From assembly GCA_965645245.1 (NCBI GenBank), contig OZ287082.1, positions 1,426,001-1,490,000 of the forward strand: DNA of 64,000 nucleotides. Direction: 5' to 3'. Made by a program: the position numbers and the translations under genes. Shown in pieces: positions 3,310-52,370 of the stretch (within the stretch, counting starts at the first letter, position 1; every line of letters starts with the position of its first letter). Source of the DNA: Massalongia carnosa. Lineage: Eukaryota. Below the pieces are notes generated by a model. That model saw only the letters and a program-made list of their open reading frames with translations, did no database searches and had not been told where the DNA came from.

Positions 3310-3729
3310 TTTCGCGACAAGTTTATGATCGTAATTGAAACGATGAGACTAAGTCTTTCCTCTATACGCCCAGCACCATATATGATGTGCAGTTGATATC
3401 TATCTATGGTATGATTAATAACAGCTAACGGTCGTAGGTTGCCCTATGTTCGTTTAATTAATCGTTAAAATAATTGAATTACGGAAGCGATTAATTCGTC
3501 GGCAGATATCGTAGTTTTCTTTGATTAATCTTGGATGAATGTTGTTGAACCGTGACAATTTATTGTACAAATCTTTTGGAAAACTTTTATCGATTAAAAT
3601 CAATCAAGTGTAATGATTTTTATGAAGCTTGAACTTAAAAAAAAATTAAGTGTTATAAAATGATTGAATATTTATCAATTATTCATCTAGTTTTTTAAAT
3701 CAATCGTATTTTCTAAAGTAAAGCATTAA

Positions 3730-7434: not shown

Positions 7435-10400
7435 ATGACAGATAACGATTTGCATATGGCTCCGGGACTGGTATACTCGAACTTGGACATGATAAATATT
7501 CAAACTAATGACCAGAACAAGGCATCTTCTACTGTACTATCAGAAGCTGCAGAGGTGCTAACTACTAAAGTGCTTACCCAAGAACCCGATGCATGCTCCA
7601 TTCCGGAGGTCTCGAAAGAGGCGGACGCTGTCAGCCATATTAACACAAAGGGAAAAGCTGCCAGCACTTCGGACAACGAGAATGTGCAACCTGATCCTCA
7701 TTCTCCAAATTTCAGCTACGAGAAGTGGATCACAAATATGTTTCGAGATCCAACGAAATGCCGTAAGAGAGACAGCGGTGTTGCTTATCAGAACCTCAAC
7801 GTTTACGGGTTTGGCACCATAACTGATTATCAGAGAACTTTCGCAAATTACCCTTTAATGTACTTGAGTCATCTCGGTACATTAATTGGTCGTCAACGAA
7901 AGTCTCGGATAGACATTCTACGAGATTTTGAGGGTATAGTCAATAGCGGCGAAATGTTGTTGGTGCTTGGAAGACCAGGCAGCGGCTGCACAACGTTTTT
8001 GAAAGCATTGGCCGGGCAAACTCACGGGTTTTTCATTGATGAAAAATCGAAGATCAATTATCAAGGTAATCAGAGGACTAATCTTGCCTTTACTGATTAA
8101 TGACTATGTGACTGAATGGATACAGGCATTCCACGCGACGTCATGCAAAAGGAATTTCGTGGAGAATACACTTATCAAGCAGAATCCGACATTCATTTTC
8201 CACATTTGACTACCGCTCAAACACTGAGTGTTGCAGCGGAAGCCAGAGCACCGGCGAATGCTGTTGCTGAATCAAGTCGCAATGAGTATGCAAAGCAGAT
8301 AAGAGACGTTATAGTTGCAGCTTTGGGTTTGTCTCATACATTGGATACGAAGGTTGGGAACGATCTCGTACGGGGCATCAGCGGTGGAGAGCGCAAGAGA
8401 ACCAGCATCGCCGAGGTTCTAGTTGCTGGCAGTTCTCTTCAATGTTGGGACAATAGCACCCGAGGATTGGATAGCGCAAATGCTCTAGAATTTGTGAAAA
8501 CTCTTCGGCTGTCTACCAGAACAACTCGGTCGGTGGCCATTGTCACACTTTATCAAGCTTCTCAAGACATCTATAACACCTTTGACAACGTAGTGCTACT
8601 TTACGAAGGCCGTCAAATCTTCTTCGGCAGCACATCCATAGCAAAGACGTATTTCAGCGACCTCGGCTTCGTCTGTCCAAAACGTGCTGCAACGAGCGAT
8701 TTTTTGACTTCGCTGACGAATCCGGTAGAACGCATTATACGTGACGGATACGAATTCAAGGTCCCTCGTACTCCAGATGAATTTGCGCAGGTTTGGAGGG
8801 ATAGCCCCGAACGAGCAGAGCTTCTTGAGAGGATGAAGCTCTATGAAACACAATTTCCCATGGACCGAGAGCACCTAGAGAATCTGCGAATCATTCAAAA
8901 GAGCTACAAAGCACCGAACCAGCGTTGTCATTCTCCATACGCCATATCTTTCCAAGATCAGATCACTCTTTGTATTACTCGAGGCTTCCAAAGACTGGTA
9001 AATGACTTGCCTCCATCCATCTCATCAGTCGCTGGGAACGCTATTGTCTCAATTATTCTTGGCAGTATGTTCTACAACATGCCTGCAGACACCAGTAGCT
9101 TCTTCGGTCGTGGAGTCTTATTATTCTTCACTGTTTTGACCAACACATTCCTAGGTGCCTTTGAAGGCGTTCAGCTCTGGGACCATAGGCCCATCGTTGA
9201 AAAACATTTTCAATATGCATTCTACCATCCAACTGCGGAAGCAATTGCATCAATGATCTGTGATCTTCCGAACAAATTGCTTTTGACGACCTTCTTCAAT
9301 ATTCCGTTCTACTTTTTGGCGAATATGCGAAGAACTCCCGGTGCTTTCTTCACCTTCTACATTTTCTCATTTGTCAGCCTCCTCACAGGGTCCATGCTCT
9401 TTCGAGTAATTGGAGCCATCTCTCGAGGATTGACCGCATCCATAGCACCTGGAGCTATCTTCATATTATTGCTAATTATATACACTGGATTTGTTTTGCC
9501 AATCCCTTCCATGCATCCTTGGTTTCGATGGTTTGGCTATATTGATCCCATCGGCTACGCTTTCGAGAGTCTGATGGTCAATGAGTTTTCTGGTCGCCAG
9601 TTTCCCTGCAGCGTATTCGTACCACAAGGTCCGGGTTATCTGGATGTCAATCCTCGTGAGAGAATGTGTGCGGCCGTTGGAGCGGATCCCGAATCGATTA
9701 TGGTGAATGGAGATGCCTACCTTGCGACTAGCTTTCAATATTACCCAGAGCACCTCTGGAGAAATCTGGGTATCATCTTTATTCTTATGGGTTTTCTTTG
9801 TGGTCTTTATCTGTATGCCACTGAATATGTTGTGACTTTGCGCTCAAAGGGCGAAGTGCTTATCTTCCGCCGAGGCCATGAGCCTAGGCTAAAATTCAGA
9901 GAGGATGAGGAGTCTTCAAATCTACATAAAAACCCGGTTTCTTATGCAGATACCAGAGAAAAGGGCTCAAAAATCAGTGGAGAGTTGAGCTGCATAGATA
10001 TACATGCGGCAACGTTTCTTTGGGATAGACTTTGCTATAAAGTGAAAGTGAAAGGCGGCTATCGGAATCTGCTCAATGATGTCGAAGGTTGGATCAAGCC
10101 AGGAACTTTGACTGCTTTGATGGGTGCATCTGGGGCAGGTAAAACCACGCTTCTCAATATCCTTGCCAATCGAGTGTCGACTGGTCTAATAGCCGGAGAG
10201 AAACTGGTCGACGTAAAGTACCAAAATGAAGGTTTCGCACGTAAAGTCGGGTATGCTCAACAACAGGATGTACATCTTGCGACTACAACAGTTCGAGAGA
10301 CTCTTACATTCAGTGCTCGTTTGCGACAATCAGAAAAGTATACAGACGCCGAGAAATTGGCTTATGTTGATCATGTGATCGATATTCTTGATATGAAAAA

Positions 10401-12042
10401 GTTTGCTGACGCTGTGATCGGAGTTCCCGGAGAAGGCTTGAATGTCGAACAAAGAAAACGTGTTACTATTGGCGTCGAGCTTGCTGCAAGACCAGAGTTA
10501 TTGTTATTTCTGGATGAGCCTACCTCTGGCCTTGATAGCAATACCGCTTGGGCAATCTGCACCCTGTTGCGCAAGCTGGCCGACAATGGACAGGCCATTT
10601 TGTGTACAATTCATCAACCTTCAGGAATATTGTTTGAAATGTTCGACAAGCTCTCGTTTCTTGCCAATGGAAAGTCAATCTACTTTGGTGAAATCGGCTT
10701 GAACTCTCGCATTCTTACTAGTTACTTTGAAAACCACGGAGCTAGGAAGTGCAGGTTGGAAGAGAACCCTGCAGAGTGGCTTTTGGATGTTTCGGGAAGT
10801 GCGCCAGGGTCTAAAAATCGAATTGACTGGGCAGAAGTGTGGCGCCTCTCCGAAGAGAGGCAAGGTGTCAAAAGTGCTCTTAAAAGTATGAAGAAAAATT
10901 TATCGAAGCCAGTGGCAAAAGCCGAAGAAGCTGCCTCGAGAGAGTTTGCTTCATCTTTTGGCTATCAACTCTACACAGTCACGAAGAGAAACCTTGAAAA
11001 TAATTGGCGAACGCCGTCTTATTTGTACACGAAGCTCGTTCTTACTCTTGGGACAGTTGGTATCTCCATATTCCCTCGTCGGACAGTTCTGACATCCCAT
11101 TCAGGGCCTTATCAATGGCTTCTCATTCTATCATTCTGAAAACAGCCTTCAAGGTGTTCGAAATCAGATTTTTTCTGTATTTCTTCTTTTTACCTTGCAC
11201 AGCAATCTGGTTCAGTTAATTATGCCTCATTTTCTTTACTCTCGGGAGATTTACGAAATATCCGAGCGCCCATCGCGTACTTATTCGTGGAAAGTGTTCG
11301 TCTTGTCCAACATTATCAGTGAAGTTCCGTGGCAAACTTTGCTGGCTGCGCTTTTGTTTGTAAGTTGGTATTATCCTTTGGGAATGTATCAAAACGCCCT
11401 CATGACCGATCAACTCAATGAACGGGGTGGCCTTATGTTCCTCATCATATGGTCTTTCATGCTTTTCTCCTCTACATTCTCTCAAATGCTCTCCACGGTC
11501 ATGCCGGATGCTGCGACCGGGGTCAACATCTCAGCATTGCTCTATTCACTCTCGCTCATCTTCTCCGGGTAAGTCAAGAGTTCGGCAGTTCTGATCGAGT
11601 GTTAATCATTGGTTCTTGTCACAGAGTGCTTGTCAGTCCTGCCGCTCTGCCAAGAGTCTGGATATTCATGTACCGGGTAACGCCATTGACGTATTTTATA
11701 AATGCCCTAGTGTCGACAGGTGTTGCGGGGGTGAATGTTGTGTGCGCTGCAAACGAAATCGTCAGATTCGATCCTCCTAGCGGACAGATTTGCAGCTTAT
11801 ACTTGAAAGAATATATGAGTCACGCGGGAGGAAGTTTACTAAATCCTAGCGCAACCCGACAATGTGAGTTCTGCTTGGCTGCCGATACAGACAGTGTTTT
11901 GGCTGCACTAGGGATTTACTTCGGAGACCGCTGGAGAAACTTTGAAATCTCGCTGATATACAGCGCTGTCAATGTTACCGGTGCATTGTGCTTATATTGG
12001 CTTTTCCGAGTCCCAAAGGGACTAGGTCGCCGGAATATCTAA
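7435..12042 (+). CDS. Full-size ABCG / pleiotropic drug resistance (PDR) transporter, 4 exons
   Basis: NBD1 Walker A GRPGSGCTT, signature ISGGERKRTSIAE, QCWDNSTRGLD. NBD2 GASGAGKTT, LNVEQRKRVTIGVEL, FLDEPTSGLDS. Two TM domains. Introns 8066-8125, 11056-11104 and 11569-11624 (GT..AG) join the ORFs in frame. Start codon approximate. Confidence 0.95.
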
Positions 12043-14030: not shown

Positions 14031-14464
14031 ATCTATGTTTGGCAACTCTCCCCTCGCTGCTGCCCTGCTGGCGCTCAGTTTTGCTGAGGGCCCCTCCTAT
14101 AATGGCTTTGTTTTGGCAGCAGTGAGGGGAAAAACTCCAGCTACCTATGCGGCTGACTCAGGGAGTGGGTGGGTGGGCAAAAGACCTTTTGGTGCTGAAC
14201 TCCGAATCAATGGTGATGATGAGGAGAAGAGAGCCAAAAGGCCACCTATTTATGCCCTTTCTCTCCCCTCCTTGTCCAACTATTTGGAGATCATCCTCCT
14301 TCGGCCTTCGGCCTTCGTTGGCTATCCATGGCCTGCCTCCACTCGGTCCCAGCATTACCCTTTCCACTAAAGCACCACCGCATCATTTGAATTACTATCA
14401 CATTTACTATCACATTATTATATTATTATTATCAAATCAAAAAATCATTGCTATCTATATCTAC

Positions 14465-16498
14465 AATGGATTCTGTATCCTTACAAACACGTATTAGTGA
14501 TGCTAAAACATTTCTTGTTGGAAAATCCTGACGAACGAACTGCATGCGCAGCTCAGATATTCAAAATTCGACCTACAACGTTGTACAGCTCTATTACGAC
14601 TGGTAAGAAATCTTCTTTTTCTGATATGAAATCTTCTTCTAACAAGAAATCTTCTTCCAGTGCAAAAAGTGCAGAGGTGGACAAAACAGGATACTTGAGG
14701 AGCATCAAGTAAAAGCGATTCATCACTTTATTCGATCCTTACTTGCACAGGGTATTCATCCATCGCACGAAGTTGTATTCAATGCAATTGTCAGTTTAAA
14801 ACGCGGGCAAAATCCTGAGTCGAGTGGACCCACTCTACGCTGGTTCAGAACATGGTGGAAAAAGAATAACCTACACAAGATCAGACTAAGCCATTAGCAA
14901 TGATACGATTCACCGCTGCACAAGAGAAGGATATACAAGCATGGTTTGTAGATTATAGACAAGCTTTAAAGACGTTACAGATCAAAACAACGAAGAATAT
15001 TGTCAATTTCGATGAGGCAGGCTTTGGTGTTGGGTGTATGAAAGGGCATCAAATTCTGGCGCCCACAGACGTATTAGAAGTTAGATTCTATATTGTTATT
15101 CATTTATTCAGCAAGTTAAATATATATTTTAGTTCTATGCGATAAGTCCTTGAAATCGTAAATCTCTCACGATATTTGAATGCATCAATGCAGCGGGCGA
15201 CTATCCTCCACCACCTTTAATTCTTATACAAAGGACATGAAATCATGATGGACTGGTTTTCAAAAGAGCTGCCAAAGGGAACTCGAATTATACCTTTAGA
15301 AAACGGATTTACCTCTGACAAGATAGCACAGGTATTTCTTCCGCATTATATTGATCATTCAGACTCTGGACCAGAAGCAGACTGGAAAATAATGTTCCTG
15401 GATAATCATGGCAGTCATTGTACTCCTGAGTTCATAGCTCTTGCTAACATAAATCACATTCGTCCTTCACTTATACCGCATCTTACACACTGTATGCAGC
15501 GCTTGATGTTCGAGTATTTCAACCTTATAAACACTGGCATGATATGGCAATTCAAGATGCTCTACTGGAATTCAATGTGGAGTATACATTACAGCGATTT
15601 CTTGCGGATCTTACTAAGATACGTGATAATACTTTCAAGTAATGTACTATTCGAAGTGCTTTTGAGAAATCAGGAATGTGGCCTGTTAACGCTAAAAACT
15701 GCATTTCACTGCTTAAAACTTTCAAGCTGCCTGATGCTTAAGAAAAGCTACACAATAAAGAAAAAGAGCCTACTCTTCCAATCTTGCCTCATATTCAGCC
15801 AACATCCTCAATGGATGTTGAAATAGGACTTCAAACATGGCAGAAGAAAATTCAACAAGGAATGTTGTGGAGTGATCCGGCTCGCTCAGAACAATTTGAG
15901 TCGTTTGTTAATGATACAAAAACCGTTTGTACACAAGCTACGTTTAATGATATTCAATTATCTATATATCAGAAAAGAAGAGAAGATGGCTTAAAACAGA
16001 AATCTACCTCTCGTAAGCGATTACGAATCTTAGGTTCAGGATCAGGGCTTACTAAAGAGAATGCTGAGGAGATGATTGCAGCAAAGGAAAAACAAGCTAA
16101 AGAAACAGAAGCAAAGAAGCAGCATCAGACATGGATGAAGATTTGGCGTATGGAAAGAGACGCCAAATATGCCGAAGGAGTGATTGCGCGAAAGCAAGAA
16201 AGAAATCGTTTACGACAAATTAAAGAGCTTTCAAAACAAGATCATGCTATTTCCTCCGAGCATCTTATTCCTATTCCCGATCTCGAAGCAATTTGGAAGG
16301 CAACAGATGTTACTTGGCAAGAAGAAGAGAGAAAGAAAGCGAAAAAGACTAAATCTCAAGTATATAATGAAGATGAAGATGAAGATGAGGCGGAGACAAC
16401 ATTCATCACAGCTGTTACAGGTGAATCTTCTTTGCAAAGAGATTTTCTGCCGTTTGATGAAGACGATACTGATAGAGGCAACGAGTCTGACAATGATG
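14465..16498 (+). pseudogene. Fot1/pogo DDE transposase pseudogene with an intron
   Basis: ORF pieces 14497, 14900, 15245 and 15784 align with the transposase at 35617-37605. Several stops/frameshifts. Intron 15080-15132. The last codons (..NDVQQQLGYY*) continue after the LINE at ~21887-21912. Confidence 0.8.
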
Positions 16499-16755
16499 AT
16501 GATGATGATAAATTCTTACACCGATATGTCACCGGCCGAAGGCCGGCCCATGCGGGCGTGGTTCTATATGACTATTGTACATAGGAAAACCTTTTAAGGA
16601 ATAAAAACCTAGTAACCAAAATTATCGCCTGCGGGATCCCCATGACCCCTCAGTGTACCTAATAACGTGTATCTGTGAGATCCTTGAAAGAAAACGGAAA
16701 AGAACGAAAGAAAAGGGGAAGAAGTCAAACATTTCAAATGCTGTGTCGACGGGAA

Positions 16756-19700
16756 CTATCCGTACAGCATGGTCGCTGCAATTGAAAACTGTTTTAGTAT
16801 ATCTGCCCGCATTAACCATGCTGTCAGCTTTTTCAATTTTGCGGAATTTTCAATTATCGTGCGATAATTGTTAGTTTTCACTTGATTAAATAATTCATTT
16901 CTTCCGTCTATCAGCTGACAGTGCATGATGACGTGTTTGGCCGTCTGCCTTGGCCATCCACATATGCACGCCGGTGAGTTTACATTGGGTACGCTTCGGT
17001 TGAAAAGAAAGTTGGCTAGCCCGATTTTCTCCGTGCGACTTTGCGTTGCTAGTGAACTCTCCGCTTTTGATAAATTGCTGTGAATTTTTAATCTCTTTTT
17101 GTCAAGCGAAGCTTGTTGAGCCTCGGTGGGGAGTGGAATGCGATTTTGATAAGTCGCCCATGTTGACTTCCATATTTTCATATGATGCTCCATGAGCCGC
17201 GTATGATGTGCCCGTTGGGCCGTTCGCGCTTCTCTCAGCTCCTTGAGATATTCTGGACTGGCCTCGTACCACGGGGGCGCGGAAGGCGGTAATCTGACGG
17301 CGGCCTCTCCATTTAAAATTGCCTTGGCCCATGTGTGTTTCAGTTCTCCGGGTGTTGGCGGCGGAGTTTTTCTTCGACCCGCTCTTTCCCGTAGCTTATT
17401 AGCTATTATCTTGCATGCGGAGTTAGCGAGTGCTTTTTGCCCCGTGATTCGTAGTCGATATCTGGCTTTAGCCTGTAGTTGATCCAAATACACATCTATT
17501 GGGGCTATGTGTGTTTCTGCCTCCAGCACCGGTATCGGGGTAGCCTTGAACGCTCCGGCGACTGTGCGTAGGCATCTGTTCTGAATGACCAATTTGGACG
17601 TTATAGATTTATTTCTATTTACGTCTTTCGGGGTGTGCCAGACGATTGAACCATATGTCATGGCCGGCCGCACCACCGCCGTGTATACTTGCCTGGCCCT
17701 AGCGAACGAAGCTCCCCAGGTAGACGTGGAAATTTTTGTTAAGGCCATGCTCTGCTTGACCATCTTCTCCTGCATTTTCCGTATGTGAGCACCCCACTTA
17801 AGTTTGGTATCTATTTGAAGACCGAGTATTCTTATATCCGCTTTTGGTTTGATTAGGCTGTTTTCTATATTAATAGTAGCCGTCATATCAAATTTCTTTG
17901 GATTTCTAGATAAATGAATAAGCTCGTACTTAGTCGGAGCAAATAAGGATCCGTGCCGTAGAGCCCATCTTTCACATTCTCTGTGAATTCTTTCTAGCGT
18001 TCTGCAATTTTCTTGCGTGCTTTTCCCATATGCTAGTACATTGATGTCATCGACGAATCCGAGTCCGCTCGTTTTCGTGCCGGGCCTGTTACATATGTCT
18101 AGTAAATCCGCATTGTAGAACAAATACAGAATGGGAGAGATGGGTGAACCTTGCGGAATTCCGGTTCTCGCATCAAACTCGTCGGTGGTTCGTCGGTTGA
18201 TCGTAAGAGTGGTCCTTCTGTTTTTCAAAAAGCATTCTATCCAGTTGGTGACTCACTGTGGACTTTTTCTTCTTCGAAGATTGTGGATCAGTCTTTGATG
18301 CGAAACCGTGTCGTACGCGCCGGCCACGTCCATGCTGAGCAGCGTGGCAACTTTATCATTACCTTGACCCCACACTGTGTGAATCTGTTCGGTTAACAGC
18401 TCTAGTGCTGACTCGGTGGACCTTTCCCGTCTGGCTCCCATCTGGGTGCCTGGTAGTAACTCGTGCTTTTCGGCCATGTGAGTGATCTTGCTTGCCATGA
18501 TGGCTTCCATCACCTTGCCTAGCGTATTCAGCAGTGCTATCGGGCGATAGGCCTTCGGCGTTTCGTAATTGTCTTTGCCCGCCTTTTTCAGCGTTATCGT
18601 GTGCGCTGTTCTGAATGCTCGCGGGTGATATCCCAGATTTACGCACGCCTGAAATAGAGGAGTTAACAACTCGGTCAGCGTCTCAGAGCACGCTTTGAGA
18701 ACTCTATTGGGTATGCCATCCGGTCCAGGAGCCGTGTCGGGTTTGAGGCGTAGAATGTTCGTGAGCACCTCTTTCTTCGTTATGACTGTTGGGCACTCCG
18801 AGGCTGCCGGATAGACCGACCCGGGTATGTCCTGTAGATCTGCCGGAGGTGGAGCAGGAAAGAAGATGCCTTTCAGCATTTCAGCCTTCTCTTCGAAGGT
18901 GTTCGCGCTGTGATTGTTGAAAGTCAGTGTTGGCATTTTTGGTGTTTCGCGCGCCTTGTGACTCTTGTCCTTTGCCCATTTCGCCAGCCGCCATATGCCC
19001 TGAGATGATTCAGACGCTTTACTGATCTCGTTTCGGAATGACAATATTTTGGCTTTCTTGATTATCTTTTGCTTTTTGTCATTCGATTTCATATACGTTT
19101 TCCAGTCATTGATATTTCGAGAGGCTGTCCAAATTTTTCGAATTCTGCGTGTTTCTCTCATGGCGTTGTTGCAGTCCTCGTTCCAGAATGGTATTGCATA
19201 AGCACTAGGCCTTGCCCATGGAACGACCGCAGATATTATTTCATGTAAGAACTTTTGTATTTTATCCGTCTGTCGATCAATCTCCTCCACTGTGCGAGGA
19301 AGTGTTATCGGGGGAGCGTTGCATTCTGCTGTTCTCAACTTTTCCATGTTCAGCAGCTTCCAGGCTCTGCGTTTTGTCTGTGTTAGCGTCTCACTTTCCA
19401 AAGAGATGCGGGAGGATATCGGAATGTGATCGGATGACTGATTGAGTTCTGGTCTTGACATGCAGTGAATTAGCCTCTCTGTTAGGAATTCTGACATGAA
19501 AACCAAATCGATGGTGCTGAATGAGTTTCGGGCTTCCCATGTGACGGTTCCATTGGGCAGGGTTAGCGACAGATTGGCTTCATCGACTATATCTAGCAGC
19601 TGATCCGCGGCTGCGTGTTGCGTGGGTCTGGTGGCTCCATTCCAGAAAGGATGATGTAGATTAAAATCCCGAGTAAGATGTGATGAGCGTCGGCGGAGAG

Positions 19701-20114
19701 CTGGCGTTGAGCATCTGGGAGGGTGGAGGGGCTGTCTCTTGAAGAATATGAGGTGGGTGATGGATTATAGACGTTGTGAATGTGTATTTCCTTGTGGCTT
19801 CCGTCATTCTTGCGGGGGTGCAATATCAATGTGCATATGTCAGCGGTTGGAAATTCTACTTTCCAGCTTTCCGGATCTATTTTATCGTTGATGTAGAAGC
19901 ACACTCTCGTGTCACCTCCTGGCCGATAGAGTAGATGAAAGCCGCTTTGATGCGGGCTGAGCGTGGTCGCAGCGTGGGGGTTGCGCCACGGCTCCTGGAT
20001 TGCTATGATGTCGTAGTCCTGTATATTTGAATCCGCTAGCACTGGTATCATAGTACTTACGCGATCATTTCTGACATTGTACTGTAGGATGCTAATTGAT
20101 TTTTTGTCCTTCAT
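16756..20114 (-). pseudogene. LINE ORF2 (APE-RT-C-terminal zinc finger), disrupted
   Basis: QYNVRND/IQEPW endonuclease; APGPDG, YRPIALL, GIPQGSPISP and FVDD RT motifs; CICG..HVIMHC finger. Frameshift near 19670 and in-frame TGA at 18253-18255. Confidence 0.9.
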
Positions 20115-21775
20115 AAAGCTTCATCCATGTCTCTCGAGGGAGTCGTTTTCGATTGGGTAGGGATTTTTACTTCCAAGTGGGCCCCTTGCGGAGCGGTCGC
20201 GGTGGGATTGTGGGTGGGGGGCGGAGCAGTTAGGGTGACTGCTGGTTTGGATGGGAGAGGGATGGGAGGAGATAGGGTAGTAGGGGGGCAGGGGGCACTA
20301 TTGACAGCGTTAGGGGGTCTACCCAGAGTGGGCTTCGCCATCGCCCTTATTCTGTTTGCCGGGTTCATGATCTCGATGTCCTTCCATGTGATTCCGGTCT
20401 CGGCACCTGGTAGGCTCCTCGGCTGATTCGCCTGTGTGGCGGATTGGGTTATTGTGCGCGATATTTTCCTTTTTTTCCCATTAATAAGACTCCATGTGGT
20501 AGGTAAGTCTTCCGTCCGTAAGTCTAGGTCTACCGTTGTAGTCCCTGCCTCTGCTGGGGGGTTGCTGGCTCCGAAATTGAATGCTGGCGCCACCGCCAGC
20601 CCTTCAGCTTCGTATAGATGCGCTTTTCTTTTCCTTGCGTCGTTTACTTTCTTCTTCTCCTTCGTTCGAACCACACACACAGGGGACCACGCTGGGTGAC
20701 CAGGCTTCTCGCACGTGGCACACATGGGGTGGGCTCCGGTCGTCTCGGGATTGCACTCGTGCGTAGGATGTCCGCCGGCACAGCGCCCACAGGCCGTGGG
20801 GTGTTTACACCATTTGCTGATATGCCCATACTTATAGCAATTGAAGCATTGCACTAGTATGTTATTTTTGTGAAATCTTTCACAGTGCTTGATCTCGTAG
20901 TCTACGAGTAGACCTTCGTTGATGAGCCTGTTGGCCATCGGTGCAGTTTCAACTTCCATGTGCAGCGTAGAGTGCACTTTTCCTTCTCTGATGGCCTTGT
21001 TGGACCAAGCGACCTTTACGATCTTCAGTCCCGCATGCAGTCGGGCATTAACGGCATGTAGGTACTCAATGGCTCTCGTCTGATTGGTGACGTCGATGTG
21101 TTGCATCCTGACGCCACGTACCTGTATGGCAAAGGTACGCCTTTAAACCGCTGCCGATGCGGCTACTTCACGCACCCAGCCCGTATTGTCATACAGTGAC
21201 TTCTTAATCGCTGCCGTTTCGGTGTGTATCCTAATGTCTCCACTGTTGAGACGCGATACTCCTATTATTCCTGCATTTCTCTTCTGTAGCGCCTCCACCA
21301 AGTCCTTTGTGGACGTTTGCTTTATTCTTTCTCGGTCCTCGCTCTTCGTCACTCGTATGGTGAGTTCCCTTGCCCTTTTGATCATACTTGGTGTTTGTTC
21401 CTTCGCTTTCTGCGTCTTTACGTTGTTTAGAGTGCTTCGAACCGGCACAGATCCGCCCTCATTGAGGTGTCCCGCCGCGGCGACGGCGGCATAGTTTCTT
21501 GCTGTTGGGATCTCCTTTCTGCTTTCAATTCTCTGTAGAGTGCTTTTGATATCATTTAGAGCAGATACCACGTGTGTGGTGTCGTGCGATTTTTTGTCTA
21601 ATTGATTTTGTGCCTCCAGCACAATTTTCGATTCCTGCAAAATTTGCAACGCTACCGGGTCTCCTACGTTACCCACACGGTCAAGATACTCTTTGATTTT
21701 AATTACCAGAGACTCTTTCGCCTTTCTATGCTCACTTTCGCACTGTGCACTTCTTGGTACGAGATTTTCGTTCAT
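20111..21775 (-). pseudogene. LINE ORF1 gag-like, one premature stop
   Basis: ORFs 21143-21775 and 20111-21106 are in the same frame, separated by TAA at 21143-21145. Three CCHC knuckles; homologous to 1822-3309. Confidence 0.9.
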
Positions 21776-22050
21776 GGTCGCCAGGCTAAGAATCCAATAT
21801 AGTATTGAAATGTGAGGGATAAAACGAGTTCAATTTCAATAGCCTAGTTCTACACCAAAATCTTCAGACCGAGTCTGACAATGATGTACAACAACAATTA
21901 GGATATTACTAGGTTTCAGCTCTTTATTAAAGCGGCAATAGTAATTTAACGACATGATAATAAATAATAATGTGATAGTAAATTTAATAGTAATTTAAAT
22001 GATGCGGTGGTGGTTTAACGTTGCGAGCCTACGAAGTTTGCTTTCCCCGA

Positions 22051-23375
22051 CACGCGGGTGACAAAATAAATTGCAACGTGTAAGCGAATTTACCCCTGAA
22101 TGCCCCATCAAAACACACTCCTTTTTTCAACTTTTTATCTCATTATCAATGTCTCGACCCAAAAAGCCTCATTATGATACTCCCACAAAGGCCAAAGTTC
22201 AAGGAGCTTATCAATTTCTCATCTCACATGCAATTCCATTCGATCCACGGGCCATTTTTCAGGAATTTGGCGTGGCCGAGCGCGCGGGCTATAACATCAT
22301 CAAAAGCGGAGCTTCTTCTCGCACACGTCACAATTCTTCTCTCGTTGAGACTCGGGGTCGAAAGCGAAAGATTAGTGATGATCAGCTGAAGGAGGCAGAT
22401 CACATTCTGCAGGATCAAGATCTACAATTGGAAGGAAAACGCTACACATGGGATGCTTTAGCACAGGAGATTGGGGCCGACGTGATGGGACGTACAATGA
22501 AGAGAACTCTTACAGCTGCCTTGAATTATCACAAATGTCTAGCCTGTGTCAAAGGGTGGCTGGCAGTGGCATCAGAAGAAAGAAGAGAAGAATTGCTACA
22601 GTTATGTTAAATAAATATCCTCGGTCCGAAGACTGGCATCGCGTACGATTCAGCGATGAGATTCATTTTGGCTACGGGCCTGAAGGACAGTTACGAATCA
22701 TTCGTAAGCCCAGAACAAGATATCGTTAGGATTGTATTCAGCATCGTGATGCACCACCTGAGAAAGATCGTAAAAGAAAGCACTGCTAGGCAGCAGTTGG
22801 TTACAATTTCAAGTCGGATATCTACTTCTACGATGTGCCCAGCAATAGCAATGGAAAAATGACTCATCAGGTGTATATTGACGCTATTCTTGATCCCGTT
22901 GTCAAGCCCTGGTTGGAGCGTGGAGATGACTTCGTACTTGAAGAAGATGGAGACTCTGGTCATGGCACGGGCAAGACACGAAACGCGGTCAAAAAGTGGA
23001 AGTTAGATCACGATTTAGAGCACTATTTCAATTGTGCTTCATCTCCTGATCTAGCCTCCATTGAAAATTGCTGGCAGCCCGCAAAGCAGCATGTTCGTAA
23101 ATTTCCTCATTGGGACGATGCAAGTTTGGAGCAGCTGATTAGGGAGGGATGGGCTCGAGTCAGTCAGGAATTTATCAATGAAAGGGTGTTATCCATGCCC
23201 AAAAGATTGAAAGAGGTAAAAGATGCAAAGGGGGCGATGACTGGTTATTGATCTCATGTAATTTAGATGAATTTTATCAGCTATGCAGATGATGGTTTAT
23301 GATGAGATGAAAATTTGAATAGAAAAGGGGGGGTAAATTCGCTTACACGTTGCAATTTATTTTGTCACCCGCGTG
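22051..23375 (+). mobile_element. Tc1-like DNA transposon (DD38E), 46-bp perfect TIRs, atypical 5-bp TSD; transposase disrupted
   Basis: TIR CACGCGGGTGACAAAATAAATTGCAACGTGTAAGCGAATTTACCCC (22051-22096, inverted at 23330-23375), flanked by CCCGA on both sides. Transposase 22149-23251 has [15 protein letters not shown] and [11 protein letters not shown], with one frameshift and stops. Confidence 0.88.
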
Positions 23376-23901
23376 CCCGACTAGAAACGAATGCTTCTTG
23401 GAGGGGAGGATTAAGCGAGCCACTAGCCGACGATTAATTCCATGGAAGCATTCAGAGCCCAGCGAGAGTGTGCGTGTCGTACTCGTACTTGGAGTCGTTT
23501 CGTATTCTAAGGTATTTGTCAGGCCTTTTTCTAACTTTTGCTAAGCCGCAATAAAGATTTAATGCAGCCGGCATGCGTAGACGGGTGGCCTAAGTTGTGC
23601 TCTGCAGGTAGGTGGCACAAACTCTTCTTCCTCCTCTCTTTCCCTCTCTTTTCTCGTCTATTACCTGCAAGCTTCACCGCTTACGTGCAGCAACACAACA
23701 AGGCTCCTACGTTGCGCAATCCTCTGTCGGAGGGAGCAGCATTCCTACATCCCCACGGAAACCCAGTAAAAATTCCCAGTGCCAGCGTTCTCAGTATTAT
23801 TCATCTCCTCCCCCCGTAGACTCGTACGATACCCAACAAAGCAGATTTCGCACCTCATACTTCTTCCTGTCAGGTGGTTTTGCAACTGATCTCTCGCCAT
23901 C

Positions 23902-25225
23902 ATGTCGCCGAATGATAAAGTGGGCCGAATACACAAGCAGGACTTTATCGTATGTACACCGGTGTTCTATCAGATGTTTACTTACTATTGAAGAACTCAA
24001 TTGTTGTTCTATTCGGGATTTGCGTTATCAGCGCTAGTGCTCGCTTTTATATTCGCATTCGTGTGCAAAAGCAACTCTCTCTTGATGATGGTTTCTTGCT
24101 CTTTGGCATTGGCTGTTTCATCTGTGCATTGGCCATACTTTTCACTTACATCGACGACATGTATATGACCGCGGCGTTCCTGTTTCGTCTCAAAGACATG
24201 GAACTTTCACCGGACTTCATACAAAAGTCTTTCGATTACCAAAAAATGGCCGCCGTCAGCCTCATTTTAACGTGGTGTTCAATTGTCTCGGTCAAATTCA
24301 GCTTTCTTTTTCTTTTTAGGCGGCTGATAGACCGCATCCCCGTCATGGTCATGTATTGGTGGTTCGTCACCGTTTTTAACGTTGCGATATCAGGATACGG
24401 AGCCGTAGTGTATATTCTTGCATGCCCATATTTTTACTCCATGAAAGCTAGTATGTTTTGACTCAAGAATACTTGGATTATCCTTCCACCAACCACTAAT
24501 ATCATTCGTAGCGAAATGTTCTCAAGGATCTCACGTACAGTTAACGTTCAATTTTGCCATGTCGCAGATGGTTTTAGATATCGTAGGCGATTTACTAAGT
24601 AAGTATTGTTAGCCCAATATCTGAAGTTTCAAGAACATGTGAAACTAATAACTTAGTTATATATATTCCAATTCGACTGATCTGGAAAATTCAAATTCGA
24701 CTAACTCAGAAAATCGCTTTGGCGTTTTCTCTTTGCCTAACGGTAATTGTTATTGTTGTCACGGTAATTCGAGCCTCCGGATTGCGCTCAGGTGATAAGC
24801 TCGACTCGATCTGGGAGACATACTGGCAGTTTGTTTCGGCAGTTGTAGGACTTATCCTGGCTGCAATCACCGCATTTCGCTCCTTTTTTGTATCTCGCTC
24901 CAAGAAGAAAGGGGCTCAAGCATCACCTATACAGTGTGGGCAATGGTACAACCAAAGCAGGAAATTTGTTAAGCGCCTTTTGAGCACTCGGAAGTGGCGA
25001 TCTCACCCTATCGGAAGATCCAGCGAGCAGAATCCAGGTGACTCGGCGGAACTTCCTCAGATCCCGCATGGGACTTTGACCGGCATTCGAACCTTTATCA
25101 ATGGGCGGGGCAGTACCTGGATTAGTGATTCTCAAATGATGCAAAGCCGTACTATGGACAACCATGGGGACATCTGGCCATTGTCAAGCACTGAGTCAAA
25201 CTCGCGGATGATCAGTGCGGCGTGA
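23902..25225 (+). CDS. PTH11/SAT4-like rhodopsin-domain integral membrane protein, 4 exons
   Basis: Motifs ARFYIR..LSLDDGFL, VKFSFLFLFRRL, DIVGDLLIIYIPIRLIWKIQIRLTQKIAL. Introns 23950-23993, 24451-24511 and 24599-24656 give a continuous multi-TM reading frame. Confidence 0.85.
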
Positions 25226-30264: not shown

Positions 30265-32181
30265 ATGTCGTTTATAGCGACCATGTTAGCCAGTATCAGG
30301 ACTGCCAAATTCTTCCCCTTCCTCTTTGTCTTATTCGGGTCTCACACGGCTCAAGCAGCATTTTTATTTACAATCTTTCTCATACTCCCATGTATTTTGA
30401 TGTACTTTGTAACATGGCTACGCTTTACAACTCAGCGGTCGAGCAAAGAGTCTATTAAAGTGCCACCGACTGTCCCCTACATGGTCCCATTCCTTGGTAG
30501 CGCGTTTAGCTTTGCCCTTGATCCTGCCAAGTGTCTTTCCGCAACTTCGTACGTACAGAATCCTATCTAAGTTTCTGTTCGAGTCTGAAAATGTGGGTTA
30601 ATTTTCCTGTGACTATATAGCCAGACAGTCGGGTCACAAGCTGCATATGGCCTCAAAATCTTGAATAACACACTCTATTTCTTAAATGGGGCGGAAAATG
30701 TTGCATTGATCTGGAAATATAAGACGAGCATAACTACGCCTGGTGTGCAAACTTTCTGCCTCCTCAGCCTGTTCAAAATGTCTCCGAAAGCTGTCAACAT
30801 GTATAATCTAGATACTTCCGGAATTCAGTCAAAGCCTAATCCAGACAGCAAGGTGGCACCACACAACCGAATAGACTACCTTACCCATGCGGGTTTTCAT
30901 AAGCTATTAAGTGGCGACGGACTTTCGAAGTTCTATCGACGTTGGTCAACAGACTTCGTTGGTCGTCTGCCAGCTCTAGGTATTACACACGAGTGGGTTG
31001 TGAATCCAGACATCATGGATTTTTGGATATCGCCGTTGACCGCCTCGTTGAATGAAGCTTTAACCGGACCGATTTTAGAATGCGTGAATCCGAATTTCAC
31101 TCGGGAATTTAACAGGTACATTCCCTTTGTTCACGGCCTTATGAAAGGCCTTCCAAGATGGCTTCTTCCTGAAGCCTTTACCCTCCGAGATCGTCTCATC
31201 GGAAATGTCAAGCAATGGCACGCAATAGCAAGGGCACGGTTTAGGGATTCTGATCTGGATGAAGATGGAGACGCCGACCCCTGGTGGGGTTGCGCAGCTA
31301 TGAGAGAGCGCCAAAAGACCCTGGGAAGAGTAGAAAATTGGGATCATGATGCAATCGCATCATCTGATTTCGGGCTTCTCTGGGGGTAGGTTGACTTGAC
31401 CATTTATCCGCCACATCCTACTCCAAACGCTCCTTGCTAATCATGATTTTCATTAAGGGCAAACATTAATGTCCACACCGCGGCCATCTGGGCCATTGTG
31501 GAGATCTTCAGGGACAAGACTCTTTTATCCAGAGTTCGTGCGGAGCTCGAAGCAGCAGGCTTTACAGGGATTACATCTAGCCAAGAAATCGACAAACTGC
31601 TTTCTCTCCCTCTCTTACAGTCCGTGCACGCAGAAGTGCTCCGTCTTCGTGTTGAGGTACAATCTGTTTTTTACAGCGAACGAGAAGACATTCACATTAA
31701 CGAGTGGCGCTTCCCAAAGAAAAACATCGTTCTCGTCCCTACCGGGGTTGCTCATAGGGATAAAAGCTTCTGGAATACGCGCGACGGGGCCCATCCCGTC
31801 GACAAGTTCTGGGCGGATCGATTTCTCGTCTATCCCAACGACCCTCTCAGTGGGCCCGAGAGAAAGACTGTTGCCGCTCTTGATAGAGCTAAGCAGAAGA
31901 AGACACAGAATGTCAAAGATTCCGGCGTACCGAAGTTCATCAGCTCAGGCTTGGCCGACTCATTCATGCCGTTCGGCGTCGGCGAACGGACATGCCCTGG
32001 TCGTTTCTTTGCCCGACGAGAGATGGTGGGCTTCTGCGCTCAGATAGTCCATGAGCTTGACATAGAAATCCTCTCAACCGAGGAGGAGTTTGAAATGAGT
32101 CCAGAATTTTACGGCCTGGGCACTCAGCGTCCGCTTCGGAGCATCCCCTTTAGAATGAGAAGGAGGACTAGCGAGTACTGA
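30265..32181 (+). CDS. Cytochrome P450 (CYP7/8-like group), 3 exons
   Basis: N-terminal TM and PPTVPYMVPFLG; EVLR (ExxR); FWADRF; heme motif PFGVGERTCPG. Introns 30549-30620 and 31386-31457. Confidence 0.92.
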
Positions 32182-33289
32182 CACGGCGAAGTAATGTTGC
32201 GTGTACGCGAAACGTAATGGAGTACGGACTCCTTTTATTTGAGATGGCTTTTGAGATTACGGCCGCTACTACGAGTAGGAGTATATGTCGGACTACAAGC
32301 ACAAGCACATGCATACACGATCTCTAACTCTATTTCCATCGCTTACCGACGATATTTTAATGACCCATTCGGAGTAGAGGTGCTTCAATCAAGTGCTGGG
32401 AGCTCGATTCTCACTACCACCGGTTCAAATTCAACTTCATGGGAAGTGGTGACTCCAGATGCTGAGTACAAGTACAAGTACATATGTAGTTTTCAATTGT
32501 ACATACTGTATTGTAATGGTCTGCACAGAACATGCGGCTCAGCTGATGAAATCCGAGTAACAATTGTGCCGCAGCATCACTGCAATAGTGTTCCATCTCA
32601 CAAGTGCTCCGTACGGTATAGTACGTCCACTTGGTGGGTGGCACAACATGACAGCAAACGATGCATAGCGGCGGGATCATCGCGCAGTCAAAATCATTTG
32701 CCGTGCTTGTATACGTCGTCTGCTGTACTTGTACATGCACGACACTCTGCTATGCAGTCCGAGCATGCATCAAACGCGGAAGATGCACAAAAGGGTTGCG
32801 CTGATTGCTACCTGCGGCGTGGCTTCAGGAGTGTGCGTGCACAGCCTTGCGATATTCGGTGTTCGCTTTGTATTGGATGATTTGTTTCGATTTCTCTGAT
32901 GAACCAGAGGCCATCTTATTCTTAATTACAGTTGAGTCGGGCGTAGCTGACATCAGCATTGAACGGTATACTGTAACGTATTGTCTGTAATCTTTCTGCT
33001 GAGAAAGAAACCAAACGCCTTTTTCCTTACCAGTTATTGTTATTTTCAGTATTATATACATCCTCTTACATTGGACAATCACCGTTTTCAACTAGGCGAA
33101 GGTTTATCGTGATGGACCTCCCGGATTATCCTCAAAAAGGCTATAAAGAGCAAACATCCTAAAACATGGTCTTCCTACTTTAAAGCTTCGAGATTGACTG
33201 TTTTCGCCTGCCTGACACCTTCAGTACGCCGATGCACTTGTTGGACCTAGCTTATGCTTAATTCAGCCTGAGTAGTTACGCCAGGAATT

Positions 33290-35046
33290 ATGGCCTCCGA
33301 CGGATCCATTTACATGGGGCCAGTTGGCACTGCCACACTTATCGTGCTCGCGACTTTGATCGCGTACTTTTTCACAAAGTTGTATCAGGCTCGCATGTTG
33401 ATAGTCGACCGACAGAAGAGAGGATTGGTGCGAGACAGCCTATCTCGAGCGAAATCAGCCTGCTAACAACCCCCAGCCTGTAGCTCCTGGCCATAGTTTT
33501 GTTTGGGGGCATCTGCTGTATCTCAAGGGCGTCATAGATGCGCTGCCCAAGGGCGCACACTATCAGTACGCGTTTGGTGATGTCGCTCGAAAGCACTTCG
33601 CCAAGGAAGGGGTTTTCTACATTGATCTTTGGCCCCTCAGTGGATTATTTCTTACTGTTATATCGCCGGATGTAGCTATTCAAGCGACGCAGACGGATAC
33701 AACTCTTGCCCTGGAAAGGCCATATCTGCTGCGCCGCTTCTTCAAGCCTATTGCAGGAGGGTTGAATTTGTTTGATCTACCCGAGAAAGAGTGGAAGCCG
33801 TGGCGAGCGGTTTTCAGCAAGGGCTTCGGCTCCGATCACATCATCTCACTTGTTCCGGGCATGGTTAGAGAAGCATCTGTTTATTGCGAAACCTTGCGGG
33901 GTCTTGCCCGGAAAGGAGATATGTTTTATCTGGATCCTACGACTTTACGTTTCACAATGGATCTGATTGGGAGAACAATCTTGTGAGATATATCATTCGT
34001 CATTATTCTGCTACGATGGAACTGACCCTACAATCAGGAACACTTCACTAGGAGCTCAAAACGGCTATAATACGCTAGCCGATTGTATGTTAAGCCAGAT
34101 TCGTTGGCACCAGCCTAATGCTAGCACGAGTCCTTTGGAATACTGCAATCTTGCCCGTTGGTACATGCACTGGTGGAACAGCCGACAAATGAATAGATAT
34201 ATCGGAGAAGAGCTTGATATGCGATACAATGAATACCGAGCCGACCCAGGTAGCAGTCGGACCAAGGCGGTGATCGATCTTGTCTTGCAGGCCTACATCC
34301 CAGTGGACGCTAAAGCAATGCCGGAAAAGCTCGATCCAGAATTCCGAGCGTTTGCAACAAGGCAAATCCGTTTATTTGTGTTCGCCGGTCATGACTCCAC
34401 CAGTAGCACGATTTGTTATATCATTCACCTTTTAGCGACCAATCGAGAGGCCCTGGCCCGCATTCGTGCCGAACACAACGAGGTTTTCGGGAGCGACTTG
34501 TTGGCAGTCACATCCATGCTCGAAAAGGAGCCTCATTTAATCAATAATTTACCATATACCGCTGCTGTTATCAAAGAGGCGCTGAGGCTTTTTACTCCCG
34601 CCGGGTGCAGTCGTGCAGGCAAACCAGGTATCAGCATTATCGATGACCAGGGCAATCAATGTCCAACCGACCACGCCGTGGTCTGGATTGTTCACGTGGA
34701 AATGCATCGCGCAGCGAAATATTGGAAACATCCTGACAAATTTCTCCCCGAACGCTGGCTCGCGGAGCAAGGTGACGAGCTTTACCCCATGAAAGGCGCA
34801 TGGCGGTCTTTCGAACATGGGCCCAGGAATTGCATTGCACAGGGCCTGGTAATGACGGAACTACGGACGGTTCTGGCGTTGATTGTCCGCGAATTCGAAT
34901 TCAAGCCCGCGTATGATGAATGGGACAGGCTGCATCATGGAAAGAAAATTCCGACCTATAGAGGAGAAAGGGCTTATCAGATTGAAGAAGGCGCAGCACA
35001 TCCCGTAAATCGTTATCCATGCCGAGTATTTTTGAGGGAGGAATGA
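33290..35046 (+). CDS. Cytochrome P450 (resembles VerA/AflN-StcS-like monooxygenases), 3 exons
   Basis: TM anchor; FAGHDSTS I-helix; KEALR; FLPERW; heme motif SFEHGPRNCIAQ. Introns ~33429-33477 and ~33983-34037. Subfamily assignment is from motif resemblance only. Confidence 0.9.
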
Positions 35047-35332
35047 AGGAGGATACTTGAACCGGTAGAGGAAAAGGATCGTTGAGATGTGGATATAAGT
35101 GTGATTCGAGCTAAATTAATAAATAGAAAGATGAATGATGCAAGCTGGAAAAATCATGTAAAACGTGTTTGATAAACGTAAACTAAATAATGTTTCATAA
35201 TAGTCATATTTCCGAAACCGTAGTTTTCTTTATAAATTTCTCCCATTTCTTCAAATCCCTCTTGACTCTTTAATCGTCGGCTCGCTTACCTCCGGGATCC
35301 GACTTGAAAAATGTCGACCGCATTTTAATCGG

Positions 35333-35422
35333 GGAAAGCGGTTGCATCCCGGAAAGCGGTTGCATCCCGGAAAGCGGTTGCATCCCGGAAAGCGGTTGCA
35401 TCCCGGAAAGCGGTTGCATCCC
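35333..35422 (+). repeat. Five perfect 18-bp tandem repeats GGAAAGCGGTTGCATCCC in the transposon end
   Basis: Directly visible. Only one partial unit is present in the opposite TIR. Confidence 0.95.
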
Positions 35423-35616
35423 CCCAAATTCAAATTTCTTCATCTTTTTGATCATTGACCAACAACCACATTGATTAAAAATCAGCCGATACCGTACATA
35501 GCTTGAAAATCATCGCCGTCATCATCACCGTCGTCAAAATCATTTCCCTTGACTCCCCTGACCCCCTGACCCTCGTGATTCTCCGCTTACTCCGCATACC
35601 CCGCATACCCCGCATT

Positions 35617-37605
35617 CTAACAATCATTCGCATCTCCTGGTTGAAAAGATGCTTCCGAATCGAATTCTTTCAATGATTCTTCCAAATCGAAAGATACGAA
35701 ATCATCTCGTAGCCATGTTTCTCCTTCTGGAAGATCTGGAAGGATTGAATTATCCCCATGACCAGTGCTATCTACGATAAACGTGACATCTTCCTCATTG
35801 ACATTGGCACGCGGATTCTTTCTAATTTCCTTCTTCGCTTCCTCAGCTATCCATACCTCATTCGTGGCCTTCCATAATGCCTCGGGGTCAGGAATCTTCT
35901 CATACATCTTAATTGGAATGGGACCGAGCATTTTCTGCATTTCTTTCAGCTGTTTAACTCGATCTCTTTCTGCTTATCGAGCAGCCAATCCCTTGACATG
36001 CATTTCGTCTCTTTCTATTCGCCATAGCTTCATGAAGCTATTATTCGCTCGTTTCTCCTCAGCCTCTTGATCCTGTTGTAGTCTGATGGCTATAGCCTGC
36101 TTTGCATCTTCCGCTGTGATTCCCAATCTTCCGGTTTCTGGTCTCAGACGTTTACGAGACATTCGTCTGTTATTTAACTGACTTCTTCTTGATTCTCGAT
36201 GCATTTCCAGCTCCGTGCCATCGATAATTGCATTCGAAACAACTTCATTTGTATTGTCTACAAATGAGTCCCATTCCTCAGCCCGAGCGGGATCACTCCA
36301 TTGCATGGATTTTCTGATTTTCGGTCCCCATTGACTCAAACCATACTCAATGTCAGCTACTTTTGTCGGTTGGATTTGACGAGGTAGGGGTAGAGGTAAT
36401 GAGGGCTCATTATTCAGACTGTTTAATGAATCATTGGGATCATTGGGATTGAAATTTTTCAGCTGACGAATGCATGCCTTTGGATCAATCGGCCACATTC
36501 CCGACTTTTCAAATGCATGCCGAATCGTAGAAGTCTTGAATGTATGATTTCTGATTTTGGTCAAGTCCTGTATAAATTGAGACAGAGAATACTCGACAAA
36601 TGACGACGCAACGACTTCCTCAATAGCTTTGCAATGCCAATGCTTATAAGGCTGAAATACGCCCACATCCAATGTTTGCATGCAATGAGTTAAATGCGGT
36701 ATAAAGGGAAAGGGTCGAATGCGATTCTCATTGGCCAAAAGTGAAAATTCAGGGGTTGTATGACTGCCATGATTATCCATCAGCAATAATTGCCATTCCG
36801 CATCAGGTCCTGCATTTGTATGTTTGATAAGATGCTTCAAATATTCAATTGCTATCTTATCAGATGTAAAACCACTGTTCGAGGGCACGACATACGTGCC
36901 CTCGGGCACACCTTCTAAAAACCATGTGGCCATGATGTCATGACCCTGTACGATGATCATTGGAGGGGGGGGATAGTCGCCGGCAGCATTGATAGTCTCA
37001 ATAACTGTCGCAGATCTGCGATTTTCCGGGCTGACGGCGTAGAATTGTTTGATTTCCTGACCCCTCATGCATCCAACCCGAAAACCAGCTTCATCAAAGT
37101 TCAAAATGTTCCGACTTTTTCGAATTTTCAACTCTTTCAACACCTCTCTATACCTTTCAAACCATTCTATCACATCTGATTCTTGGGCAGCTTCATAACG
37201 AATCATTGCTAGTGGTTTTGTCTTTATTTTATGAAGTTTGTTACATTTCCACCAGCTCCGAAACCATCTTCTTGACGGGCCTACCTCGAGGGGGTTATGG
37301 GCCTTTTTCAGACTTACAATAGCCTTGAAAACCATCTGATGTGTAGGAAGAATTCCATGCATCAATAAGGACTTAATAATGCCAGTAATTGACCTTGCCT
37401 CATGCTCCCTCAGTATCTGATTTTGTCCTCCATTTTTCCTCCCTTCTGGTCGACGAATGGAAGACGTCAAAGTTTTGACGTTGATATTGAAGATTCTAGC
37501 TGCAGTCGTTTTACTTTCTTTGGGATGATTTGTCAGAAATTCCTTCGCCTTTTCCAATCTTTCCATGGGGTTGAGAGTGGAGACAAGGGAGGCGTCGTTA
37601 TCCAT
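35617..37605 (-). pseudogene. Fot1/pogo DDE transposase with one in-frame premature stop
   Basis: NFDEAGF, LMDNHGSH and QTLDVGVF motifs. TAA at 35974-35976 is in frame with the downstream ORF 35617-35940. Confidence 0.85.
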
Positions 37606-43379: not shown

Positions 43380-43390
43380 GCTGACTGTAG

Positions 43391-52096: not shown

Positions 52097-52370
52097 TTTT
52101 GAATATCCAATTCCTACAAGCACAATAATTACCTATCAGTAAAATAAATATAGCACCTACGGCTGCCCTAGATAGACAGATCATCTACTGAAACCGTAGA
52201 TGCCGCATTAGGCTTAGTCTTAAGATAAGATAAGATCACCTCGCTCAGAAGGGGGTGACCAGTAATAGGAAAAGATTGCTGCCTAGCAACTCTTTATCCT
52301 TAACATTACGCTCATACATACCTTTATTATTATAAAGGCATATAACTATAGTCATATACCTATTTCAACT
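52097..52370 (+). mobile_element. Copia solo LTR (RIP-mutated), same family as 61277-61550
   Basis: 274-bp reverse-complement match to 61277-61550, with many CpA>TpA / TpG>TpA changes. Confidence 0.88.

Follow-up and report, generated by a model that had tools for sequence, protein, structure and literature searches.

A defective Tc1/impala-like transposon of Massalongia carnosa flanked by a candidate 5-bp, non-TA target-site duplication

Introduction

Canonical Tc1/mariner transposases choose TA dinucleotides as targets and duplicate them on insertion (PMC2874221, PMC5630946), and this TA duplication is treated as a signature of all Tc1/mariner elements, to the point of being built into annotation rules and into the software used for finding transposable elements (TEs). 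Among the fungal members, impala was classified as a DD37E element by Dupeyron et al. (2020), and the supplementary tree of that work, in the available part of PMC7325037, shows an ascomycete clade around impala with members from Penicillium, Talaromyces, Aspergillus, Rhynchosporium, Cordyceps and Fusarium. Here we describe an impala-like element carried by a 64,000-nucleotide stretch of Massalongia carnosa DNA (contig OZ287082.1, forward-strand positions 1,426,001 to 1,490,000; hereafter the window, from whose first letter all positions are counted). The element has perfect terminal inverted repeats (TIRs) together with a Tc1-type transposase gene, and both of its ends adjoin the same five nucleotides, CCCGA, with no TA. 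We lean towards reading it as a recently inserted, now defective cut-and-paste transposon with a real 5-bp, non-TA target-site duplication (TSD) and an altered strand-transfer stagger.

Results

Ends and flanks of the element

A preliminary description of this DNA, made from the letters alone, had proposed perfect 46-bp TIRs, a CCCGA on either side with no TA, and a probability of about 1 in 1000 for such a 5-bp match by chance. All of this was borne out by our analysis. The two arms were complementary over their whole length and enclosed a spacer of 1233 nt, the repeated flanks and the lack of an adjoining TA were found at both ends (Table 1), and among 2,000,000 random intervals taken from the window, the flanks matched over 5 nt with a frequency of 0.00106. 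Among these intervals, TA was present on both sides with a frequency of 0.0033. The ends of the element read CAC...GTG, with CA as the terminal dinucleotide, and the flanking direct repeat is exactly 5 nt long, being preceded by a C on the left and, on the right, by the G that ends the TIR. The insertion site reads ...GCTTTC-CCCGA on the left, and the right-hand CCCGA is followed by CTAGAAACG. When the window was scanned with a 24-nt end probe, allowing for up to 3 mismatches, the two ends of the element were the only sites recovered, and 0 of 100 shuffled controls gave two matches.

The position of the boundary was also compared with the TIR pattern of mimp and impala elements (van Dam & Rep 2017, PMC5579170). 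The first 16 nt of the TIR fitted this pattern at 11 of the 16 positions, in register and counted from the terminal C, a fit equalled by 0.70% of the 16-mers in the window, and the second Tc1-like element of the window fitted it at 12/16 positions (0.14% of the 16-mers being as good). Because the start of the TIR matches the mimp/impala pattern in register, we take the CA boundary as the true end of the element and the bases outside it as flank. It is virtually certain that the feature is real and that the element is a Tc1/impala-like transposon, and CCCGA is probably a duplication made at insertion.

As a control, the flanks of five other elements in the window were read in the same way. They were those expected for each kind of element, namely TA in 3/3 Tc1/pogo-type elements, in agreement with what the preliminary description had stated of them, and 5 bp in 2/2 Ty3/gypsy elements, and the element studied here was the sole exception.

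Table 1. Positions of the element, its transposase gene and the control elements in the window
Feature	Position	Strand	Remarks
Tc1-like element	22051-23375		1325 bp, bounded by perfect 46-nt TIRs
Left TIR, 46 nt	22051-22096	+	begins CACGCGGGTG; 100% complementary to right arm
Right TIR, 46 nt	23330-23375	-	100% complementary to left arm
Left CCCGA	22046-22050	+	candidate 5-bp TSD; no TA adjoining the element end
Right CCCGA	23376-23380	+	direct repeat of left flank; no TA adjoining
N-terminal transposase part, DNA-binding region	22149-22610	+	153 codons (22149-22607) and premature stop from frameshift
Frameshift site	22594-22595	+	one base short relative to P0003; P0003 match changes frame here
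Catalytic DDE_3 part, second frame	22577-23251	+	coding to 23248, TGA at 23249-23251
First catalytic Asp codon (RFSDE)	22655-22657	+	residue 27 of P0001
In-frame TAG	22727-22729	+	X51 of P0001; sense codon in intact relatives
In-frame TAG	22787-22789	+	X71 of P0001; sense codon in intact relatives
Second catalytic Asp codon (EEDGDSGH)	22946-22948	+	residue 124 of P0001; aligned to the Sleeping Beauty motif DNDPKH
Catalytic Glu codon (SPDLASIEN)	23063-23065	+	residue 163 of P0001
7.6-kb TIR element	14370-22015		flanks TA / TA
Pogo-like element	35273-37817		flanks TA / TA
Second Tc1-like element	49239-50563	-	flanks TA / TA
First Ty3/gypsy element	38880-45730		flanks CTGTT / CTGTT
Second Ty3/gypsy element	53514-60184		flanks ATCGG / ATCGG

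The transposase gene and its damage

Two reading frames of the element jointly encode one transposase. To describe them we refer to P0001, the protein of the catalytic part of the element, and to P0003, an intact relative of 367 amino acids. The N-terminal part of the transposase was 97% identical to residues 1-149 of P0003 and the catalytic part was 95% identical to its residues 145-367. The catalytic triad is made up of D27, D124 and E163 of P0001, with 96 and then 38 residues between them, which reproduces the count of 38 residues separating the second D from the E given in the preliminary description, together with the Tc1-type motifs that it had listed, including SPDLxxIE (here SPDLASIE). 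A point absent from that description is that the gene is broken: one frameshift and two stop codons have left it dead in the window copy. Repeat-induced point mutation (RIP) was considered as the cause of the stop codons and rejected, the element having a TpA/ApT ratio of 0.52 and a (CpA+TpG)/(ApC+GpT) ratio of 1.66, with no RIP signature.

The copy could still be moved by an intact one, since its ends stay perfect, and only with the enzyme of an intact relative, of which P0003 is an example. The 90% identity cluster of P0003 contains 43 sequences, which suggests, at the level of protein sequence, a multi-copy and recently active family.

Family membership and fold

The preliminary description had assigned the element to the Tc1-type DDE transposons, and domain, sequence and fold comparisons agreed on this. 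Pfam DDE_3 was found in the catalytic part (2.8e-8) and in 28/28 of the aligned relatives, and the catalytic domain of Sleeping Beauty (5cr4) was matched by sequence with an E-value of 6e-11. An AlphaFold model of P0003 (predicted local distance difference test score, pLDDT, 78; predicted template modelling score, pTM, 0.61) was used as query in a fold search, in which the best 15 matches in the PDB were to Sleeping Beauty, Mos1 and SETMAR/Metnase chains, with a template modelling score (TM-score) of 0.73 for Sleeping Beauty 5cr4 over its length; no RAG1 or Transib chain was present among the 50 fold matches listed. The N-terminal domain HTH_Tnp_Tc3_2 was detected in 16/28 relatives and stayed below the thresholds used in the N-terminal part of the window copy and in P0003, whose model is helical across residues 13-134.

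The layout is also that of the Tc1 family, with a single transposase gene between short TIRs and a length of 1325 bp in a family ranging from about 1.3 to 2.4 kb. The insertion at TA and the duplication of TA that go with the family were not seen in the window copy (n = 1). These results place the element within the IS630-Tc1-mariner group, in a large Tc1/impala-like clade from ascomycetes. Its home is most likely the ascomycete clade around impala, as judged from the ascomycete hosts of its relatives and from the published tree; a search for the motifs of the family in the available part of the supplements of PMC7325037 gave no match.

Breadth of the family and the D-E spacing

Of 465 candidates from a word-indexed protein search, 421 were matched at E<=1e-5. 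The named relatives, all of them fungal, came from Bimuria, Clathrospora, Botrytis, Pseudogymnoascus and Orbilia. When clusters at 50% identity were searched exhaustively, 3640 were returned at E<=1e-3, 966 at 1e-10 and 232 at 1e-30. The number of residues separating the second D from the E was then counted in 121 proteins, of which 86 fitted the two motif patterns used and 35, being fragments or motif variants, were left out. Among the 86 scored proteins the spacing was 37 in 44, 38 in 32, 39 in 2, 40 in 6 and 41 in 2. On a quick IQ-TREE tree of 66 family rows, with the protein of the second Tc1-like element of the window as outgroup, the spacing label changed at least 19 times, and the element grouped with P0003-P0007 in a small DD38E cluster, nested among rows of spacing 37 and 38, with a support of 95 in the Shimodaira-Hasegawa-like approximate likelihood ratio test (SH-aLRT). 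Because the spacing runs from 37 to 41 and its label changes so often along the tree, the D-E spacing is, judged from these alignments, a variable loop length and no lineage marker. The DD38E label of the preliminary description therefore holds as the spacing of this copy and fails as the name of a lineage.

Neighbouring elements and genes

The element is part of a transposon nest, with the right end of the 7.6-kb TIR element 30 bp to its left. That 7.6-kb element has 54-nt TIRs that are 93% complementary and a weak DDE_1 (pogo-type) open reading frame (ORF) at 15221-15823, and it harbours a nested Tad1-like long interspersed nuclear element (LINE) on the minus strand (about 16756-21829) with a zf-CCHC-less ORF1 and the domains Exo_endo_phos_2 and RVT_1. 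A diverged LINE copy of the same family is found at 1-3348, with about 71% identity to 18290-21701, and its ORF has a zf-CCHC knuckle.

The protein of the second Tc1-like element is 28% identical to P0003 and is encoded by a stop-to-stop frame of 401 codons with HTH_Tnp_Tc3_2, DDE_3 and HTH_SB matches. This element has as neighbours an ORF with no Pfam match (48451-49215) and an ORF matching cytochrome P450 (50586-51218), and may lie in an intron or split a gene. The pogo-like element is of the pogo/Fot1 kind, with an open DDE_1 frame of 573 codons, perfect 33-nt TIRs and a subterminal inverted repeat of 103 nt (97%) at 35411-35513 and 37684-37786. Both Ty3/gypsy elements have chromodomains, and the identity between their long terminal repeats (LTRs) is, in the order of Table 1, 100% over 160 nt and 99.8% over 490 nt. 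These near-identical LTRs, together with the lack of RIP signatures, indicate that the transposons of this genome are active now or have been so very recently. The second LTR element is bracketed by an inverted repeat of 271 nt (91.5%; 52099-52369 and 61278-61548), and short related repeats are present at 16493-16610, 53427-53516 and 61161-61277; it may have landed inside another repeat.

As to genes, the studied element lies 540 bp upstream of one with a fungal rhodopsin domain (23919-25225), and a PDR/CDR-type ATP-binding cassette (ABC) transporter gene is found at 7225-11139, with the domains ABC_trans_N, ABC2_membrane, PDR_CDR and ABC_tran. The best named relatives of this transporter belong to lichen-forming fungi, Pleopsidium flavum (71% identity) and Lobaria immixta (70%), which points to the likely group of the host, a fungus of the Pezizomycotina. 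At least three cytochrome P450 ORFs are scattered amid the transposons (31447-32178, 33967-35043 and 50586-51215, in the regions 30613-35046 and 48451-51218), and the region may be rich in P450 genes and perhaps one of secondary metabolism.

Discussion

A transposition event with a wider stagger than usual, at a non-TA site, would be the simplest account of the observed flanks. The transposase would bind both ends and excise the element, the two 3'-OH ends would be joined to phosphates of the target that lie on opposite strands and are separated by 5 bp, and repair of the gaps would then duplicate CCCGA, with the geometry of the enzyme dimer dictating how far apart the joining events lie. In canonical Tc1/mariner joining these events take place 2 bp apart, at TA. 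Since the stagger would be fixed by the enzyme assembly, a 5-bp duplication should be a property of an enzyme sub-lineage and not of one accident. We regard the question of whether the 5-bp, non-TA duplication is heritable in this lineage as evenly balanced, and are slightly more hesitant about the broader proposal that a sub-lineage, or a wide clade, of ascomycete Tc1/impala-like transposons gave up TA for a 5-bp stagger at non-TA, GC-rich sites. The loop that follows the second catalytic Asp exceeds that of Sleeping Beauty by 4 residues and is modelled with low confidence in P0003 (residues 271-275); speculatively, its Gly-rich stretch GHGTG may take part in the change of stagger.

The copy shows several signs of youth, namely TIRs that are 100% identical, a protein 95-97% identical to that of an intact relative and the lack of a RIP signature, and because it is young, the decay of former TA flanks is unlikely. 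Changes in the length of the duplication have parallels elsewhere. Tc4/Tc5, the TBE/Tec elements of ciliates and Zator make duplications of 3 bp. TA-duplicating lineages are described inside Harbinger and CMCT in the available part of PMC12730594, and the title of the report on hAT5 and hAT6 provides a precedent for a shift in TSD length within a superfamily.

A number of observations weigh against a 5-bp duplication. The case is made by one copy, from which the preliminary description had generalised to a lineage with altered target choice and cleavage stagger: no second copy or miniature inverted-repeat transposable element (MITE) was found in the 64-kb window by the end probe with up to 3 mismatches, by scans with 14-30 nt allowing 2-7 mismatches or by self-BLAST, and no empty site was found there with the joined flanks and a single CCCGA as query. 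The LINE paralogue at 3100-4100 gave no empty site either, its homology ending about 350 bp short of the insertion site. Impala and mimp depend on TA, which followed 150 of the 158 mimp ends according to the available part of PMC3599309, and all surveyed Tc1/mariner families are reported with TA (PMC5630946, PMC2874221 and the available part of PMC7731502). The family is large (421 proteins, 232 clusters at E<=1e-30), and no 5-bp duplication is mentioned for it in the literature that we found; more generally, a literature search, whose scope lay outside Repbase Reports and most subscription journals, turned up no Tc1-like element credited with a 5-bp duplication. The TSDs of fungal Tc1 elements are rarely tabulated in the literature. 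The usual Tc1 motifs are retained in the transposase, whose sequence contains no hint of a new target geometry, and the D-E loop varies from 37 to 41 residues across the clade. The TIR string was met in the literature in three unrelated primer lists only, a Sclerotinia Tc1-Mariner paper deals with pogo-type elements with TA, and bacterial and archaeal genome contigs yielded 26 pattern matches, of which 12 loci were kept (22-39% identity, all in bacterial metagenome-assembled genomes, MAGs, or isolates), with 0 members of the family among them.

Should the family be an ordinary TA-inserting Tc1/impala one, the flanks of this copy would have to be ascribed to an irregular event, such as repair capture at a staggered break or an aberrant integration, or to coincidence after a rearrangement. 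We consider this unlikely, although it deserves a serious hearing, as TA is the rule in every described relative, a single copy was seen and its setting, a transposon nest in which another TIR element ends 30 bp away, is prone to rearrangement. However, repair-mediated capture usually nibbles the ends, and in this element no terminal base is missing and the two ends mirror each other perfectly. Where Tc1/mariner enzymes are known to integrate off target, they still duplicate 2 bp, and no canonical route strips TA from both flanks of a young copy, while mere coincidence runs into the low frequency (0.00106) with which 5-nt flanks match in the window.

The boundaries could also have been misread, CCCGA being, in whole or in part, an asymmetric terminus of the element, or the true ends lying elsewhere, and the flanks would then say nothing about the duplication. 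With one copy, element and flank are inseparable by comparison, and the C that follows the right-hand CCCGA is the same as the first base of the element, so that on one side a repeat of either 5 or 6 nt may be read. However, positions 22051 and 23375 are exactly where the inverted repeat breaks off, its terminal CA lines up in register with that of the TIRs of impala, mimp and the second Tc1-like element of the window, and no alternative boundary yields TA flanks. Short contigs with proteins of the family, 1278-1452 bp long (1294, 1291, 1332, 1317, 1284 and 1309 bp among them), fit a unit of 1.3 kb as well, which is soft evidence, and on the whole we find a misreading very improbable. Finally, Transib, as described in the available part of PMC1131882, is brought to mind by the CAC...GTG ends and the GC-rich repeat of 5 bp, and both LTR elements of the window have 5-bp duplications, so that another enzyme, either a Transib/RAG-like transposase or a Ty3/gypsy integrase, might have moved the element. 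That explanation is scarcely credible: the element encodes a Tc1-type enzyme of its own, its TIR agrees with Transib at 4/7 positions of the heptamer and 3/9 of the nonamer, integrases need TG...CA ends, the fold matches listed were devoid of RAG1 or Transib chains, as stated above, and Transib is, in the available part of PMC5751038, the one cut-and-paste superfamily reported as missing from fungi.

If a lineage with a 5-bp duplication exists, it would be the first of the IS630-Tc1-mariner group to make one, with an apparently intact, multi-copy transposase among its members. A natural Tc1-type enzyme with a 5-bp stagger and no need for TA would show that the geometry of target capture can shift within this fold, and would give structural studies of how the stagger is determined a closely related enzyme to compare. 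In fungal genomes, classifiers that rely on TSDs would overlook such elements or file them wrongly, and the enzyme would be a possible starting point for Tc1-type insertion tools free of TA. If other copies proved to be flanked by TA, the finding would shrink to one irregular insertion of an ordinary element.

Comparison with known systems

Sleeping Beauty and the Tc1 elements (DD34E), as well as the mariner element Mos1, have the same catalytic fold and motifs as the element described here, the full-length Mos1 complexes being matched too, and they move by cut-and-paste at their TIRs as it would do. It departs from them by the 4 extra loop residues, relative to Sleeping Beauty, and by its non-TA flanks.

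The spacing of 38 residues is common to the element and to Intruder (DD38E/IT; Gao et al. 2020), known to us by its description, which in the available part of PMC7731502 gives lengths of 1.5-1.7 kb and hosts among arthropods, cnidarians and vertebrates, reports none from fungi and has TA as the general target of Tc1/mariner elements. Because the spacing is a variable loop length in the fungal DD37E/38E clade, the shared DD38E is most likely the result of convergence.

Transib, to which the preliminary description had compared the CAC ends and the GC-rich 5-bp flanks, was correctly portrayed there, and the likeness proved to be superficial. According to the available part of its description (Kapitonov & Jurka 2005, PMC1131882), Transib elements make 5-bp duplications at GC-rich targets, are 3-4 kb long, encode a RAG1-like enzyme of about 700 amino acids and have TIRs of 38 bp composed of a CACAATG heptamer, a spacer of 23 bp (or 12 bp) and an A-rich nonamer. 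They share with the element a 5-bp flanking repeat in GC-rich DNA and the first three bases, CAC, only. At the position of the heptamer the element has CACGCGG (4/7), the positions of the nonamer are occupied by TAAGCGAAT or ATTGCAACG, neither of them such a nonamer, and its relative of 367 amino acids is of the Tc1 type and not RAG1-like. The element is unrelated to Transib and the resemblance is coincidental.

The closest likeness is to impala and mimp of Fusarium oxysporum, with which the element has in common an ascomycete host, a length of about 1.3 kb, a single transposase of 340-370 amino acids and a TIR starting with CA. Its TIRs are longer (46 bp, as compared to the 27-37 bp reported for impala and mimp), and its D-E spacing is 38, whereas that of impala is 37 (available part of PMC7325037), the commonest value in the clade. 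Above all, impala and mimp require and duplicate TA, as stated in the available part of PMC3599309, whereas the element of M. carnosa is enclosed by a 5-nt repeat with no TA.

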